Assembly: GCA_963762925.1 (NCBI GenBank)
Contig: CAVXMP010000007.1
Coordinates: 83,992 to 147,991 of the forward strand
Reading direction: 5' to 3'
DNA: 64,000 nucleotides
Source: an uncultured Acidobacteriota bacterium
GTDB taxonomy: Bacteria; Acidobacteriota; Vicinamibacteria; Vicinamibacterales; UBA2999
The notes beneath the pieces are model-generated. The model did not search any database, was not told the origin of the DNA, and saw only the letters and a list, made by a program, of their open reading frames with translations. A program made the translations under genes and the position numbers. Positions 5,258 to 12,655 of the stretch are shown here, piece after piece (positions within the stretch are counted from its first letter, which is position 1; every line of letters begins with the position of its first letter).

Positions 5258-6816
5258 TAGATGCTCAGCTTCGCCGTGGGCTGCCGGCGCGCCAGGGCCA
5301 GCTCAAAGAGGGTGCGCGACACAAAGACGGCGGTGAACACGTTGGACAGCAGGCCGATGGTGAGGGTCATCGCAAAGCCGCGGATTGGCCCGGTGCCGAA
5401 CTGGAACAGGAACGCGGCCGCGATGAGCGATGCCACATGCGTGTCGAGAATGGTGAGGAACACACGATCGAAGCCGGCGGCCACGGCCTGTCGCGGCCCC
5501 TTCGCCGTCTGGAGTTCTTCCTTGATGCGCTCGAAGATCAAGACGTTCGAATCGACGCCCATACCAATCGTCAGAATGAACCCCGCGATGCCTGGGAGCG
5601 TCATCGTCGCGCCGATATAGGCCATCAACCCGAGCAGAAGAATCAGGTTGACCACAATCGACACGAGCGCGTTGATGCCCGACAGCTTGTAATACGTGAC
5701 CAGAAACAACATGACGAAGACGAGCCCGCCGATTGACGCCAGCACACCAGCGCGAATTGATTCCTGTCCGAGCGTCGCGCCAACGGTCCGCTCTTCGAGG
5801 TAGGTCAGGTTCGCGGGCAGCGCGCCCGAACGCAGCTTCAGCGCGAGATCCGCGGCTTCTTCTTGGGTGTAGTTGCCGGTGATTTGACCTTCGTCGTTAA
5901 TCCGCGACTCGATCCGAGGAGCCGAGACGACGCGGTTGTCGAGGACAATCGCCAGGTTTCTGTTGATGTTGTTCTGCGTGAACTGCCCGAACTTGGTCGC
6001 GCCGTCGCTCTTCATCGAGAAGCCCACGGCCGGACGGCTGTTCTGGTCGATCGACAAGCGCGCATTGCGAAGATCGCGGCCGGTGACGGCTGGCACCCGT
6101 CTGACGACGTAGTAGACCGTGGACGGGCGGTCACCCGGTGCGCCTTCGCTTGTCCCCGGCATGATTTGCAGATCGGGCGGCACGTTACCGGCGTAGGCCT
6201 GCCGGGCCGCGGCCTCATCGGAGAACGGTCCTTGTTCGACGAGTTTGAGCTCGAGCTGTGCAGTGGAGCGGATGATCTCTTTGGCGCGCGCCACGTCGGT
6301 CACGCCTGGAAGTTGGACCAGAATCTGGTCGGCACCGCTATGCCGCGCGACAATCGGCTCGGCGACGCCGAGCTCGTTGACGCGCCGCTCGATCGTCTGC
6401 AGCGCCTGCGTCACCGATTCGTCGCGCAGCTGCACGGCGATGTTCGGCCGCATCGTGAAGGTGTAGTTGCCCGCGCCAGAGGATCGGTTGTAAGTCGGCT
6501 CGATATCGGTCACTAAGCCGCGAAACGCCTGATCCTTGTCGGCCGTGACATTGTCGACGCGAAACTCGGTCGGACTCACGATGGTGACCGTCGCATCGGG
6601 AATACCCGCGGTGCGCAACTGCTCCCGCAGCCGGTCGGCTGTCGTTTCGGTCTCGAGCCGTACGGCATCCTCGGTCTGCACCCGCAGCACCAGATGCACG
6701 CCGCCTTTGAGATCGAGCCCGAGCCGGATCTTCTGGTCCGGCGGGTAAAACGCGAAAATGGCCAGCGCGACGACGCCGACGATGACAACGAGTTTCCAGC
6801 GGAGGTTCTTCGCCAT
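5257..6816 (-). CDS. secD: protein translocase subunit SecD
   Basis: 519 aa. Large periplasmic domain, then GIAGFILTIGMGVDSNVLIFERIKEE, the SecD/SecF membrane core. Confidence 0.93.
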   Translation of the reverse strand: MAKNLRWKLVVIVGVVALAIFAFYPPDQKIRLGLDLKGGVHLVLRVQTEDAVRLETETTADRLREQLRTAGIPDATVTIVSPTEFRVDNVTADKDQAFRGLVTDIEPTYNRSSGAGNYTFTMRPNIAVQLRDESVTQALQTIERRVNELGVAEPIVARHSGADQILVQLPGVTDVARAKEIIRSTAQLELKLVEQGPFSDEAAARQAYAGNVPPDLQIMPGTSEGAPGDRPSTVYYVVRRVPAVTGRDLRNARLSIDQNSRPAVGFSMKSDGATKFGQFTQNNINRNLAIVLDNRVVSAPRIESRINDEGQITGNYTQEEAADLALKLRSGALPANLTYLEERTVGATLGQESIRAGVLASIGGLVFVMLFLVTYYKLSGINALVSIVVNLILLLGLMAYIGATMTLPGIAGFILTIGMGVDSNVLIFERIKEELQTAKGPRQAVAAGFDRVFLTILDTHVASLIAAAFLFQFGTGPIRGFAMTLTIGLLSNVFTAVFVSRTLFELALARRQPTAKLSI

Positions 6817-6824
6817 AAGGTGCG

Positions 6825-8344
<1,520 letters not shown>

Positions 8345-8375
8345 TTACGAGCCGAACGCTTGCTATTATCCCTAC

Positions 8376-9538
8376 GTGAAAAAGTTGCGCGTCGGCGTCA
8401 TCTACGGCGGCCGATCGGGAGAACACGAAGTGTCGGTCGCTTCGGCCGCCTCGGTCTTCAAGCATCTCGATCGCACGCGCTACGAGCCGGTGGCGATTCG
8501 CATTGAAAAAACCGGCCGGTGGACGATTGCCGACCGGCCTCCTACCGCGCCGTCCGCGGCGGAGGTGCTCGAGCAGGCGCGCGTGCACGGTGTACGGACG
8601 ATTCGGCCTGGACGGGAAGCTGGTACCCGTCGCGCACCCGGGCGAAGAGACGCTGCTCACGTTCGAACGACGTCCGGCCGTCAAAGGTCAACACGACGTC
8701 GAGCAAACCGCCGTGACAGGCCTGGGCCTCGATGTCGTGTTCCCGGTGCTGCACGGACCGTATGGCGAGGACGGCACCGTGCAGGGCCTGCTGGAGCTAG
8801 CCAACGTGCCCTACGTCGGGTCGGGCGTCCTCGCGTCCGCTGTCGGGATGGACAAGGCGGCCATGAAAGTGATGTTCACGGCGCGCGGCCTTCCCGTCTG
8901 CGAGTGGAAGGCCTTCATCCGCACGGAGTGGGATTCGCAACGTTCTGCCGGTACTCGACCGGCTCGCTGTGCTCGGTCTCCCCGTCTTCGTCAAACCAGC
9001 GAACCTCGGATCGAGCGTGGGCATCTCGAAAGTGAAAACGGCGGCCGAGCTCGCACCCGCGATTGAGGTGGCGCTCCAGTTCGATCGCAAAGTCGTCGTC
9101 GAGGCGGCCGTGCCCGATGCGCGCGAGATCGAATGCGCCGTTCTCGGCAACGATACGCCGGAGGCGTCACTACCAGGCGAGATCATCACGGGACGTGAGT
9201 TCTACGATTACGAAGCAAAATATCTCGACGCGAGTTCGCAGACGGTGATTCCCGCGGATCTCTCGGTCGAACAAACCGCAGACATCAAACGGCTGGCGAT
9301 CGACGCGTTCCGCTCGGTCGACGCCGCCGGCATGTCGCGCGTGGACTTTCTGCTGTCGCGCACCAGCGGCACGGTTTACGTCAACGAGATCAACACCATC
9401 CCGGGCTTCACCACGATCAGCATGTACGCAAAGATGTGGGAAGCGTCCGGTCTCGCGTATCCCGCCCTCGTCGATCGCCTCATCCAACTCGCACTCGAAC
9501 GTCACGCCGAGAAGCAACGACTCCGCACCAGCCTCTAG
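8376..9538 (+). pseudogene. ddl: D-alanine--D-alanine ligase, interrupted by two +1 frame changes as sequenced
   Basis: Homology runs through three frames: [23 protein letters not shown] (frame of 8154), [31 protein letters not shown] (frame of 8503), and [18 protein letters not shown]...VNEINTIPGFT (frame of 8969). Shifts near 8600-8630 and 8940-8975. Confidence 0.88.
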
Positions 9539-9715
9539 GCACGAAGGACACGAAGGACACGAAGGACACGAAGAACTACGAAGGGCGCGAAGGGCGCGAC
9601 GCGTGCTCCGTGATCTTTCGCGGCCTTCGTGATCTTTCGCGGCCTTCGTGGCCCTTCGCGCCCTTCGTGACCCTTCGCGCCCTTCGGGACCTTCGTGTTC
9701 TACGTGCTCTACAGA
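9539..9715. repeat. simple-sequence palindromic element built on 9-nt periodic CGAAGG / CCTTCG words
   Basis: (CACGAAGGA)x3, (CGAAGGGCG)x2, (CGTGATCTTTCGCGGCCTT)x2, then complementary CCCTTCGCG / CCTTCGTG units. Starts directly after the ddl stop. Confidence 0.8.
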
Positions 9716-9817
9716 TTTTCACGCGCTGATCCGAAACGACTCACGAACCAGTGATCGCGGACTGGGGAAAATGACCAGCAATCCATGCTCGAGTTGACTC
9801 GTAGCGGTGGTTTGTGC

Positions 9818-9845
9818 TTGACATCCCATTTTTCTCATCCATAAT
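9818..9845 (+). promoter_or_regulatory. sigma70-like promoter TTGACA-N16-CATAAT upstream of micro-ORF 1
   Basis: TTGACA at 9818-9823 and CATAAT at 9840-9845, in a locally AT-rich patch. It would give a ~110 nt leader before the ATG at 9963. Confidence 0.5.
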
Positions 9846-9962
9846 CTACATCTGGTATGAGGGTGGACGGCTCAGGCCACGGGTTGTGAACGCTTGAGAC
9901 TAAGTTTTCACGACATCGCGGTCGCCACACTGGCACGAGCGCGACCCCCTTCAGGAGGAACA

Positions 9963-10019
9963 ATGGCGAAGAAGGCAAAGAAGGCGGCCAAGAAGGCCAA
10001 GAAAGCAAAGAAGAAGTAA
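9963..10019 (+). CDS. micro-ORF 1: 18-aa polycationic peptide MAKKAKKAAKKAKKAKKK
   Basis: ATG preceded by AGGAGGAACA (SD) and followed by its own intrinsic terminator. A paralogous copy 279 nt downstream differs mainly at synonymous positions. Confidence 0.6.
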   Translation: MAKKAKKAAKKAKKAKKK

Positions 10020-10032
10020 GGCCGTCTCAAAA

Positions 10033-10068
10033 GGGGCGGTTTCACCTCGTTGAACTGCCCCGCTTTTT
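10033..10068 (+). terminator. intrinsic terminator after micro-ORF 1 (also reads as a terminator on the minus strand)
   Basis: GGGGCGG-12 nt loop-CTGCCCC followed by GCTTTTT. An A-run on the 5' side makes it bidirectional. Confidence 0.7.
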
Positions 10069-10241
10069 CTCCAGCTCTCGAGCAAGAGCACAAGATTGCG
10101 CGCGCCACATCACACACGATGGCCGCGCACCGAAGCGCGAAGGGGCCGGCACACGCGAGCGGAGTGCCAGGCGGCAGATGCATCGCGGTGGCGCGGTATC
10201 TCCTTCCGCAGCAACCCAACCTGAAGGGGGGGATTAGACCA

Positions 10242-10298
10242 ATGGCGAAGAAGGCAAAGAAAGCGGCGAAGAAGGCCAAGAAGGCGAAGAAGCGCTAG
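10242..10298 (+). CDS. micro-ORF 2: 18-aa polycationic peptide MAKKAKKAAKKAKKAKKR
   Basis: ATG preceded by GAAGGGGGGG (SD-like). The stop coincides with the end of track ORF 10050..10298. Followed by its own terminator. Confidence 0.6.
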   Translation: MAKKAKKAAKKAKKAKKR

Positions 10299-10325
10299 GC
10301 CTGTCGGACCGCTGACAGATCCCAA

Positions 10326-10354
10326 GGGGGCAGAGGAAACTCTGTCCCCTTTTT
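10326..10354 (+). terminator. intrinsic terminator after micro-ORF 2
   Basis: GGGGCAGAG-GAAA-CTCTGTCCCC stem-loop followed by TTTTT. Confidence 0.7.
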
Positions 10355-10355
10355 A

Positions 10356-10482
10356 GTTTCCAGTTCCCAGTTGCGGGTTCAAAGTTGAGTGGTCAGTTAC
10401 GAGGGCCTTCGGGTATCAGGGTTCTCGGGACAACCGCATCACTGATAACTAGACTTTGAACTGGCAACTGGGAACTGGAAAC
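10356..10482. repeat. long hairpin element with CCAGTT-type tandem arms
   Basis: The 30-nt arm GTTTCCAGTTCCCAGTTGCGGGTTCAAAGT (10356-10385) is complementary at 27-28 of 30 positions to ACTTTGAACTGGCAACTGGGAACTGGAAAC (10453-10482), with a 67-nt interior. It lies between the micro-ORF 2 terminator and the stop of the convergent PPIase gene. Confidence 0.8.
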
Positions 10483-10501
10483 TCAACGTCGAAGTCTCCC
10501 G

Positions 10502-12655
10502 TCACCGTGGTCCCACCCAGTTCGTTCCATCCCACACACGGACCGTCCGAATCTGATCCCACTGCTGCAATCGATCGACCACGTCCATGCCCGAAACGAC
10601 GCGACCGAAGACGGTGTAGCGGCCGTCGAGGTGCGGCTGTGGTGAGTGCGTGATGAAAAACTGACTGCCGCCGGTGTCTTCCCAATCGAGCGCCATTCCG
10701 ACCGTGCCGCGCAGATATGGTCGCTGATTGATTTCGTCGCGGATGGTGTAGCCCGGGCCGCCTTCGCCGTCGCCGCGCGGGTCGCCGTCCTGTACGACAA
10801 AGTCCGCGACGACGCGATGAAACGGCGTCGCGCCAAGGAAGTTACGGCGCGCGAGCGACACGAAATTCGCCACCGCGCGCGGCGCATCGAGCACGGCGAG
10901 CTCGATCTGAATCATCCCTTTCTCCGTATCGATATACGCCATCGGCGAGACCGGCGGCGCGATGAGCGCCTTGAGGTCGTTCAGCTCGGGCGGGCCCGCA
11001 TCCGGCGCCGGCCGCATGTGGCTCACGTCTGCTGCCGCATCGATCCCTTTGAGCAGGGCGGCCGCGCGGACGCGCAGGGCCCAGTCGCGATCGCCCAGCG
11101 CGCGTTCGAGCAACGGCTGCGCCGTCTTCGGGTCGAGTTCGACGAGTGCCGCGAGAATCGCCGCGCGCCCCAGGTAGGTGGGGTCTTTGTCCGCCCGTTC
11201 GTACGCCTGCACCAGTGCACCCACCGCACCGGATGCCTTGATCCGGGCCAACCCCGCGGCCGCGGTCTGGCGCACGACGACATCGTCGGCGGTGAGCCGC
11301 GCGAGGAGGGCGCCCTCGGCGGTCGGCGCCTTCGTTGCGATCAGCGCGCTCAGCACGGCCGGAACGACACGGTGATCGGAATCATCGAGCATCAGCGTGA
11401 GCCGCGGTGCGGCGCGGGCCACGTCAAGCGTACCGAGAGCTGTGGCGAGCGCAGCTCGCACACTCCAGTGAGGATCCGGATCGAGGCCGGAGAGCGCCGT
11501 CACAAAGGTGTCCGCGTCGGCGCGCGCAAGGCCGGCAAACGCCGCGGCGCGGATCGCGGGCCATCGCTCCGTCAGGAGATCGACAAACAGATCGGCGAGG
11601 CGTGCATCGCCCAACAAGCCAAGCGCGGTGACCGCCTCGAGTCGCAGGTTCGCGTCCGTCTTCGCCGAGGTCAACAGCTTCGTGAGTGGATCGACGGCTT
11701 GTGACGCGCGCAGCAGGCCCAGCGCGCGCGCTGCCTGAACTCGGACCGGCGTCGGTTCGTCCGCCTTCGCGACGACGGCCGTGAGCGGTTCGATCGCGCG
11801 CTCCTCCTTGATCGCCCCGAGGCCGCGCGCCGCAAACGCACGCGTGAGCGCTCCATCGCCCTGCAACAACGTCAGCAGGACCGGACCTGCCTTGGGATCG
11901 CCGACTCGCTGAAACGAGTACGCCACCGGCCACCAGCGGCTCACCGGTTGACCAGCGCCGTTGAGGAGGACAGACGCGAGTGATTCGTATGCCGACAACC
12001 GCACGAGCGCATACATCCCGAGGCGCACGGCTTCAACCGCCGCTGATTTCGGGTATTCGAGGTCGTCGGGCGCAATACCCTCGAGCACACCGGTGCGCAC
12101 ATGCGGTGCGATCATCGCGGCGATCGCCGCGGCGGCCGGCTTATGCACGATCAGCCCGAGACCCTCGGCCGCGCGCCCTTGCACGAGTGGGTCCGGATCG
12201 GCGAGCGCCGCAGTGAGCGCGTCGGCGGCAGCGGGCCGTCCAATAAGTCCCAGCGCAAACGCAGCCATCTGACGCACTTCGGGATCGGTCTCGCGCCCGA
12301 GGAGCGCGGCCAGCGGCGGGATCCCCTCCTCCAGGCGCACGCGTCCGATCGCCAGCGCGGCGCGCCGGCGGATGCGCGGGACTTCGTCCTCGAGGAGCGC
12401 GATTAGATCGGGCGACGGCGGCTGCGCCACGACCACGGGCGCGCGTCCGCGGCTGGGCGGCACGACAGGTGGGGGCGGCGCTTCTGGTGCCGGCAGACGC
12501 AACACACGGTCCTGCTCCAGCCGGAGAATCCACGCCATGTTCTCGTCGAATGTGCGCACGAGTCGTGGCGGCGTCACCACAGGCGGAGGTGCGCTGGAAC
12601 ATGCGGGAAGCATCACCAGCAGCACCGCGCTACAGACAAGGCGTGAGCGGTTCAT
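10502..12655 (-). CDS. lipoprotein with N-terminal HEAT-repeat array fused to a C-terminal cyclophilin-type peptidyl-prolyl isomerase
   Basis: Lipobox MLPAC at the N-terminus. About 480 aa of degenerate HEAT/PBS-lyase-like repeats (..VR.AAA.ALG....A...L...L.D.). The C-terminus FHRVVADFVVQDGDPRGDGEGGPGY...GGSQFFITHSPQPHLDGRYTVFGRV is a cyclophilin. Confidence 0.85.
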   Translation of the reverse strand: MNRSRLVCSAVLLVMLPACSSAPPPVVTPPRLVRTFDENMAWILRLEQDRVLRLPAPEAPPPPVVPPSRGRAPVVVAQPPSPDLIALLEDEVPRIRRRAALAIGRVRLEEGIPPLAALLGRETDPEVRQMAAFALGLIGRPAAADALTAALADPDPLVQGRAAEGLGLIVHKPAAAAIAAMIAPHVRTGVLEGIAPDDLEYPKSAAVEAVRLGMYALVRLSAYESLASVLLNGAGQPVSRWWPVAYSFQRVGDPKAGPVLLTLLQGDGALTRAFAARGLGAIKEERAIEPLTAVVAKADEPTPVRVQAARALGLLRASQAVDPLTKLLTSAKTDANLRLEAVTALGLLGDARLADLFVDLLTERWPAIRAAAFAGLARADADTFVTALSGLDPDPHWSVRAALATALGTLDVARAAPRLTLMLDDSDHRVVPAVLSALIATKAPTAEGALLARLTADDVVVRQTAAAGLARIKASGAVGALVQAYERADKDPTYLGRAAILAALVELDPKTAQPLLERALGDRDWALRVRAAALLKGIDAAADVSHMRPAPDAGPPELNDLKALIAPPVSPMAYIDTEKGMIQIELAVLDAPRAVANFVSLARRNFLGATPFHRVVADFVVQDGDPRGDGEGGPGYTIRDEINQRPYLRGTVGMALDWEDTGGSQFFITHSPQPHLDGRYTVFGRVVSGMDVVDRLQQWDQIRTVRVWDGTNWVGPR

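Follow-up and report, generated by a model that had tools for sequence, protein, structure and literature searches.

Tandem Lys/Ala micro-genes near ddl as candidate members of an unannotated lysine-rich peptide family in Vicinamibacteria-type Acidobacteriota

A 64,000-nucleotide (nt) stretch of DNA from an uncultured Acidobacteriota bacterium (Vicinamibacterales, UBA2999; assembly GCA_963762925.1, contig CAVXMP010000007.1, positions 83,992 to 147,991, forward strand), hereafter the window, contains two tandem micro-open reading frames (micro-ORFs) that encode nearly identical 18-residue peptides of lysine and alanine. Comparison with related genomes suggests that the two ORFs belong to a self-contained unit, in which a promoter, a structured leader (leader 1), ORF1, a leaky terminator-like hairpin (T1), a second structured leader (leader 2), ORF2 and a strong terminator (T2) would follow one another, so that the unit would make two copies of the 18-residue Lys/Ala peptide, probably at a high level. 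The peptides appear to form the miniature end of a clade-specific, unannotated Lys-rich family of 13-74 residues in Vicinamibacteria-type Acidobacteriota. Translation of the ORFs is very probable and well supported by the comparative evidence, and we modestly favor the view that the products are charge-based polycations resembling the tails of histone H1-type proteins and made from a dedicated unit. The two ORFs are as follows.

Positions 9963 to 10019, plus strand: micro-ORF 1 (ORF1), ATG to TAA, 18 codons, MAKKAKKAAKKAKKAKKK; 34 genome loci keep it at the same position.
Positions 10242 to 10298, plus strand: micro-ORF 2 (ORF2), ATG to TAG, 18 codons, MAKKAKKAAKKAKKAKKR, as read from the sequence.

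These coordinates and peptides agree with an earlier note made from the DNA letters alone. Without the initiator Met, the micro-peptide reads AKKAKKAAKKAKKAKK(K/R). Each of the two peptides has 11 basic residues out of 18 and no acidic one, with 11 Lys and 6 Ala codons in ORF1 and 10 Lys, one Arg and 6 Ala codons in ORF2. Among the ORFs of 8-70 codons on both strands of the 64-kb window, whose G+C content is 63%, only these two contain at least 30% Lys. A repeat search delimits a direct repeat of 69 nt and 84% identity (9958-10026 and 10237-10305), so that similarity between the copies extends about 5 nt ahead of the ORFs and 7 nt past them. ORF1 and ORF2 differ at 8 of 57 nt: codons 7, 9, 14 and 15 carry synonymous differences, codon 18 encodes K in ORF1 and R in ORF2, and the stop codons are not the same; the earlier note had the number of synonymous differences right and their placement (codons 7, 9, 13 and 14) partly wrong.

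In a search for relatives of the unit, a degenerate DNA pattern encoding the first 14 residues was matched to one genome per species (185,579 species) and returned 40 loci, 35 of them in Acidobacteriota or Vicinamibacterales metagenome-assembled genomes (MAGs). All 35 share the gene order yajC, tgt, ddl, micro-ORFs, cyclophilin gene and enolase-family gene, and the flanking proteins of these species-level loci are just 58-85% identical to those of the window. Both micro-ORFs were present in all 33 loci uncut by contig ends in a relaxed scan, and the peptides of the syntenic genome loci have 14-22 residues; they consist of K and A with an occasional S, T or V, and their last residue is K or R. 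The cross-genome comparison with synteny that the earlier note proposed has therefore recovered the tandem pair from 35 species-level genomes in the same neighborhood. The free-standing duplicated version that it singled out is not unique to this genome and is not always duplicated, some lineages having a single copy. The gene downstream of the module is convergent in 33 loci, and in two close relatives (L012, 6340-6920; L028, 4119-4700) the module is inverted from promoter to T2 between unchanged neighbors, which indicates that it is independent of its flanks and lacks a downstream gene in either orientation. Both observations sustain the argument that, with no downstream target gene, the ORFs are not attenuator leaders.

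Substitutions among these loci follow the reading frame. In 23 ORF2 orthologues of 18 codons, the numbers of variable sites at codon positions 1, 2 and 3 are 1, 0 and 7, and in pairwise comparisons of 14 distinct 54-nt ORF2 orthologues the annotated frame renders 233 of 246 codon differences synonymous. The main ORF2 groups show 95-100% synonymous differences in the annotated frame versus 0-70% in the five others. ORF1 shows more amino-acid change than ORF2, limited to rearrangement of K and A and exchange between K and R. Lengths differ only by multiples of three, the ATG and a TAA or TAG stop are kept in every locus, and the third positions of Ala codons use all four bases. The stretch of open codons in frame upstream of the ATG varies from 1 to 110 across loci, supporting the ATG as the true start. 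Selection on the peptides, as originally proposed, is thus backed by differences that are synonymous in the annotated frame only, by in-frame indels and by starts and stops that are always kept. Frameshifts and non-synonymous drift in the orthologues, which had been named beforehand as speaking against a peptide, were looked for, and the change found is mostly synonymous with indels in frame; likewise, no predicted helix includes the ORF bodies, as an RNA structure spanning the ORFs would require. One supporting argument holds only in part: the two copies do share little outside the ORFs, but in cross-species comparisons the flanks are conserved at least as strongly as the ORFs, so that the loss of similarity outside the ORFs is an incomplete argument for selection on peptide rather than RNA.

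A contig scan extended the family beyond these genome loci, with the leader 1 motif (ATCTNGTATGAGGGNGNNNNGCTCAG) occurring in at least 120 metagenome loci. Among the matches listed, a Lys-rich ORF lies about 90 nt downstream of the motif in 102 of 102 sufficiently long contigs, and the matches listed include three arrangements.

Two tandem micro-ORFs: 71 loci, 13-22 amino acids (aa).
One micro-ORF: 17 loci, 16-23 aa.
Long ORF: 14 loci, 35-74 aa.

A typical micro form reads MAKKAAKGGKKKAAKKR and a typical long form MAKKKATKKKAVKKAVKKAVKKVAKKVAKKVAKKAAKKGGKKR. The long forms (35-74 aa) carry AKKAVKK and PAAKK repeats, and two of their loci (L138, L153) contain two long ORFs; they retain the same synteny with more diverged flanks (median identity of the ddl C-terminal part 65% vs 70%). 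After the Met, the 62 distinct peptides of 13-74 residues consist of 53% K, 29% A, 5% G, 4% T, 4% V and 4% R. The residue set across the family is restricted to K, A, G, T, V, R, S and P, and all 62 peptides lack acidic, aromatic and large hydrophobic residues. The basic fraction is 0.56 in short and long forms alike, and all but one of the peptides end in KKR or KKK. These patterns suggest that selection keeps charge density and the lack of acidic and hydrophobic residues, and not length, order or copy number.

The same 14-residue start was also found outside the clade, in a Phycisphaerae MAG (L033), an unclassified MAG (L040) and Bacteroidia (L002, L006 and L035). L033 carries a stand-alone 28-aa Lys/Ala ORF beside a ParA-like gene (6204-6290), and L040 a stand-alone 24-aa Lys/Ala ORF on the minus strand behind TTGACT-N17-TAGGCT (7544-7618). 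Both have strong AGGAGGTGA-type Shine-Dalgarno sequences (SDs), terminator-like hairpins and unrelated contexts, suggesting that free-standing Lys/Ala micro-genes are not restricted to Acidobacteriota. The Bacteroidia and Cyclobacteriaceae MAGs (L002, L006 and L035) encode 82-98 aa H1-like Lys-rich proteins starting MAKKAKKAAKKAKK. A search of viral contigs for the peptide pattern yielded no copy.

Database comparisons place the family outside described ones. The micro-peptides, in padded or slightly longer forms, have no Pfam or NCBIfam match at E up to 10, ribosomal families included, in accordance with the claim that they belong to no described family. The profiles nearest to the long forms are Hc2 (PF07382) and NF038053, through weak, compositional matches, the best long form reaching 13.7 bits for PF07382, where the cut-off is 40, and 12.6 for NF038053, where it is 80; neither short nor long forms reach the curated cut-off of the H1-like families PF07382, NF038052 and NF038053. 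A protein homology search with a 43-aa long form yielded 5283 word candidates and none at E<=0.01, because low complexity defeats such a search. Ten exact sequences (22-60 aa from relatives and the 41-aa in-frame extended ORF of the window, the 18-aa peptides not being among them) are absent from a collection of 15 billion proteins. The absence of these ten longer forms bears out the expectation that gene callers miss such ORFs. No published description was found in full-text searches, although catalogues of ORFs of at least 30 nt (GMSC, PMC11364881) may list such peptides undescribed.

The elements predicted to drive and regulate the two ORFs are listed below.

Positions 9818 to 9845, plus strand: sigma-70-type promoter, TTGACA-N16-CATAAT, score 11/12; hexamers invariant in 33 orthologous loci.
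Positions 9846 to 9962, plus strand: leader 1, about 110 nt; its first ~25 nt, CTACATCTGGTATGAGGGTGG, are invariant.
Positions 9953 to 9958, plus strand: SD1, AGGAGG, 4 nt upstream of the ORF1 ATG; GGAG invariant in all aligned leaders.
Positions 10020 to 10028, plus strand: GGCCGTCTC, directly downstream of the ORF1 stop; pairs with the T1 5' arm; candidate antiterminator arm.
Positions 10033 to 10068, plus strand: hairpin T1, GGGGCGGTT/GAACTGCCCC; stem 10033-10041/10053-10061, 11-nt loop, GC, T-run 10064-10068.
Positions 10145 to 10197, plus strand: long irregular hairpin of leader 2, including the invariant 16-nt GAGTGCCAGGCGGCAG at 10162-10177.
Positions 10215 to 10234, plus strand: CCCAACC/G-run hairpin, 10215-10221 with 10226-10232, overlapping SD2 GAAGGGGGGGAT (10223-10234).
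Positions 10324 to 10355, plus strand: intrinsic terminator T2, 12-pair stem, GAAA loop and T-run; end of the unit.

The promoter had been noted upstream of copy 1 and is present as described; it is the sole promoter-like site in 9400-10700, where shuffled sequences give 0.2. The proposed SD for each ORF was also recovered from the sequence, as AGGAGG at 9953-9958 and as the G-run at 10223-10234. The promoter and the structured 5' leader are conserved more strongly than the peptide, the first ~45 nt of the transcript being invariant or nearly so (33 loci, alignment A2). Predicted helices in leader 1 comprise 9870-9873/9937-9940 (GCUC/GAGC), 9875-9881/9917-9923, 9924-9926/9932-9934 and 9858-9865/9946-9953, with compensatory changes at three pairs (RNAalifold, 32 sequences); the last helix is paired in just 71% of cells in the broad set. 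A covariance model matches leader 1 in 99 of 100 sources searched. Since MAFFT misaligned the variable middle of the broad leader 1 set, the covariance-model alignment was used instead, in which 83.8% of cells pair versus 27-60% once partners are slid and covariation scores 0.118 versus at most 0.028, figures that favor the structure because the alignment is fitted to the model. Rfam 15, searched at a permissive threshold over 9000-11000, returned plant microRNA models only, far below gathering scores, and these spurious matches sit on long hairpins at 9539-9707 and 10362-10476, outside the unit. The invariant leader 1 is a candidate regulatory RNA.

Several further features were observed around the promoter and leader 1. 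The -35 element is preceded, about 24 nt upstream, by another TTGACT (9794-9799), and TTGAC(T/A) occurs there in most relatives whose alignment extends that far; this motif may serve as a second promoter or bind a factor. Many metagenome contigs (L057, L081, L092, L106 and others) stop 20-24 nt upstream of the leader motif, in the promoter spacer; an interpretation of these ends as transcription starts was rejected, as they resemble assembly breaks within a stretch that co-occurring strains have in common. An ATG about 4-10 nt from the predicted transcription start, within the invariant GGTATGAGGG, opens a 10-codon ORF (9856-9888) ending at a conserved TTGTGA; it is shortened to 3 codons by a TAA in several relatives and its variable sites ignore codon positions. 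This ORF does not encode a conserved peptide, but may be a mini-ORF of the leaderless type or a standby site resembling an SD. CCCCCTTCAGG, upstream of SD1, and CCTGAAGGGGG, at SD2, are perfect complements in the window; functional pairing between them was rejected as unsupported, because T-to-A changes in one subgroup and T-to-C changes in L021, L031 and L039 are uncompensated.

Hairpins with T-runs begin 14 nt past the stop of ORF1 and 26 nt past that of ORF2. T1 folds at -18.2 kcal/mol, has 2 nt between stem and T-run and was missed by the terminator scan; in relatives its T-run is just CCTTTTC behind a 3-nt spacer, and its arms are invariant in 33 species and hence show zero covariation. 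T1 is terminator-like and probably leaky. T2 retains 10-14 pairs followed by a T-run in all relatives, with a stem sequence free to vary. Two canonical intrinsic terminators had been proposed: the second, at 10324-10351 plus a T-run, was called by the scan and stands, whereas the first, with its 11-nt loop and no call, is terminator-like only. Pairing of GGCCGTCTC with T1 yields an alternative hairpin of -13.0 kcal/mol in the window versus -8.0 for shuffled spacers (z -2.66, p 0.003), and reaches p<=0.05 in 48% of 29 close relatives; across the broad set, z has a median of -0.49, and p<=0.05 is reached in 24% (T1) and 5% (T2). These values are only suggestive of translation-sensitive T1 read-through in the subclade of the window. 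Attenuation at T1 is not the purpose of the unit, because some lineages have a lone micro-ORF and nothing else. A separate promoter for ORF2 was considered and rejected, a sigma-70-like site being found in just 1 of 105 inter-ORF regions, and ORF2 is therefore probably transcribed by T1 read-through.

Leader 2 is likewise predicted to be structured. Its long hairpin consists of the helices 10145-10148/10194-10197, 10154-10156/10185-10187, 10159-10161/10179-10181 and 10165-10168/10173-10176; 97.9% of cells pair versus 37-60% when slid, and compensatory changes occur at four pairs in two helices. GTGCCAGGCGGCA is found in 81 of 105 inter-ORF regions and the G-run SD in about 70 of them. The CCCAACC/G-run hairpin is invariant in sequence, with all cells paired (33 species), and AACCCAACCTGAAGGGGGGGAT, upstream of ORF2, is invariant or nearly so in 33 loci.

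The unit lies within a 960-nt gap between ddl and a convergent cyclophilin gene.

Positions 8154 to 9538, plus strand: ddl, D-Ala-D-Ala ligase, upstream neighbor.
Positions 10502 to 12655, minus strand: HEAT-repeat cyclophilin-type prolyl isomerase gene, convergent, downstream neighbor.

Beyond these, tgt and yajC lie upstream on the minus strand and an enolase-superfamily gene lies downstream; there is no plus-strand gene downstream of ORF2, and the sequence beyond T2 is not conserved among relatives. The ddl of the window contains two frameshifts, near 8615-8623 and 8931-8957, and spans three reading frames relative to the intact orthologue in L001; neighboring genes are also split in several related long-read MAG loci (L008, L021 and L036). 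The split ddl is likely the result of assembly indel errors, a ddl pseudogene being the alternative reading. An imperfect hairpin with 57-nt arms of 82% complementarity (9539-9707), composed of tandem 9-nt (CACGAAGGA) and 19-nt units, lies between the ddl stop and the promoter, and an inverted repeat with 53-nt arms of 81% complementarity (10352-10486) between T2 and the stop of the cyclophilin gene. In L001, L003 and L009 an additional 1.3-1.6 kb separates ddl from the module, which therefore need not abut ddl; in L001 this region (5880-6950) carries an extra ORF with a lipoprotein-like N-terminus. The same module, plus the same flanks where reached, occurs in contigs labelled Acidimicrobiia (L011), Bifidobacteriaceae (L014) and Ca. 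Sulfopaludibacter (L026), which are probably mis-binned or carry wrong MAG labels.

Constant charge density despite varied length, order and copy number makes electrostatic polyanion binding the most likely function, in which the peptide would resemble an untethered histone-H1-type tail, with DNA, RNA, ribosomes or polyphosphate as possible targets. The leaders would control dosage post-transcriptionally, possibly in an autoregulatory manner; autoregulation by the peptide through the leaders is a reasonable guess drawn from ribosomal-protein and cold-shock leaders. Transcription would reach ORF2 by passing T1, and translation of ORF1 might modulate this read-through. The ~110-nt 5' leader, conserved above the coding sequence, recalls those of cspA and of autoregulated ribosomal proteins, although leader 1 has no sequence or Rfam relationship to them. 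The bacterial H1-like proteins (Chlamydia Hc1/Hc2, Pseudomonas AlgP and the C-terminal KPAA region of PhaF, mycobacterial HupB and the PAKKA tails of Ku, and the Burkholderia H1-like protein) are also disordered, polyanion-binding Lys/Ala repeats, and the 62 peptides show the Lys/Ala low-complexity repeats, varying in number, that characterize this group. The KPAA repeats of PhaF are disordered, bind RNA and activate translation, and their number varies between relatives (PMC12818456). The Lys/Ala(Pro) region of AlgP reportedly organizes polyphosphate granules (PMC9239181), Hc2 is reported to bind DNA and to vary in length and repeat number between relatives (PMC2848022), and the PAKKA repeats of Ku are reported to bind DNA (PMC3553676). 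Wide variation in repeat number among relatives is common to these proteins. However, the known H1-like proteins have 100-350 residues or are tails of folded domains, whereas here the whole product mostly has 13-22 residues, stands alone, often as tandem duplicates, and has its own invariant promoter and structured leader. Homology to them is not demonstrable, because the sequences are composition-driven.

Several points weigh against an H1-tail-like polycation. The family is held together by an orthologous promoter and 5' leader, a C-terminal KK(R/K) and an N-terminal MAKK, the last partly by construction, since an ATGGCNAAR start filter was applied when the broad-set ORFs were gathered. What links the family to H1-like proteins is composition, at scores below every family threshold, and the entire case is built on comparative sequence. 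The RNA leaders exceed the peptide in conservation, and part of the function could reside in the RNA. In addition, a peptide of 18 residues may have too low an affinity, or too short a lifetime, to serve as a structural polycation.

Ribosome-bound microproteins such as bTHX, bS22, bL37 and eL41 suggest another account, in which the peptides would fit into a defined pocket of the rRNA and the leaders would mimic rRNA to allow autoregulation. Size, extreme basicity and strong expression signals are as expected of such proteins, which are also very short, very basic and easily overlooked by gene callers. Yeast makes identical eL41 peptides from two genes, and ribosomal-protein operons have autoregulatory structured leaders, like the conserved structured leaders before each ORF here. 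However, the microproteins have fixed lengths and specific conserved residues, and this family has neither: 13-74 residues, shuffled A/G/T/V spacers and one or two copies in orthologous loci fit a fixed binding pocket poorly, none of the 62 peptides offers an aromatic or hydrophobic anchor residue, and the Pfam and NCBIfam ribosomal models remain unmatched at E up to 10. We regard this account as unlikely. Of the two analogies drawn in the earlier note, the ribosomal one (bTHX, bS22, bL37) fits poorly given the variable length, shuffled spacers and varying copy number, and the AKKA-type tail is the better one, given the long forms with AKKAVKK and PAAKK behind the same leader. A regulatory role with an irrelevant product is, in our judgment, quite unlikely; ribosome progress along the Lys/Ala codons would then report on tRNA charging or translation capacity and determine whether transcription ends at the following hairpin. 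As in hisL, pheL, thrL and trpL, each short ORF is codon-enriched (two codon families dominate) and has a terminator-like hairpin with a T-run close behind; the GGCCGTCTC/T1 5' arm pairing beats shuffled spacers in the window and about half of 29 relatives, the T1 arms are invariant while T2 stems vary, which is expected if T1 has two alternative partners, and ORF2 probably relies on T1 read-through, given a promoter in 1 of 105 inter-ORF regions. Unlike those attenuators, the module has no regulated same-strand downstream gene, faces a convergent neighbor, is invertible (L012/L028) and has single-copy and long orthologues: some lineages have a single micro-ORF and terminator alone, and the same leader precedes Lys-rich ORFs of 35-74 aa, which are not leader peptides. 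Moreover, shuffles do as well as the alternative hairpin across the broad set (median z -0.49), and T2 behaves alike, so that at most ORF2 would be tuned inside the unit.

A non-coding function, as a small RNA or a sponge for protein or 30S subunits in which the purine-rich AAGAAGGC repeats act as RNA and the ORFs are incidental, would agree with the highly conserved, partly covarying leaders and hairpins and with the several G-rich SD-like elements on the transcript. It is nevertheless very improbable in view of the period-3 substitutions, synonymous in the +0 frame only, the four bases at Ala third positions, the indels that are always in frame, the ATG, stop and SD kept at every locus, and a frame held for up to 74 codons; furthermore, the ORF bodies lie outside all predicted helices, and Rfam gives just spurious hairpin matches beyond the unit. 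The chance that the gene really lies on the opposite strand is close to nil. The window does contain a minus-strand ORF of 123 aa (9908-10279), whose Phe/Ala-rich ends mirror the Lys/Ala repeats, but it was rejected, because 29 of 33 evaluable orthologous loci, including that of the window, have stops in all three minus frames, minus-frame substitutions are largely non-synonymous, and the promoter, SDs and T-runs are all oriented on the plus strand.

Collectively, the products would be of a known kind, namely bacterial Lys-rich, H1-tail-like polycations, and what is new is their micro-size, the tandem stand-alone layout, the dedicated invariant promoter and leader, and the continuum of length and copy number. 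A bolder extension, which is possible yet rather doubtful, is that they are gene-encoded molecules akin to polyamines and the shortest known stand-alone polycations that bind nucleoid, ribosomes or polyphosphate, abundantly made from a riboregulated unit whose dosage would be set in evolution by gene length and copy number and in the cell by leader RNA and a translation-sensitive leaky terminator. Vicinamibacteria are among the most abundant soil bacteria, and this module is among the best-conserved intergenic modules near ddl in the clade, yet it is invisible to gene callers, Pfam, NCBIfam and Rfam. Its recovery indicates that micro-ORFs can be validated by synteny, frame-specific substitutions and a shared leader where low-complexity protein searches fail. 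If the peptides are made, the unit would provide a minimal natural system for the charge-only action of 13-22 residues on DNA, RNA, ribosomes or polyphosphate, and would show a trade-off of protein length against gene copy number.

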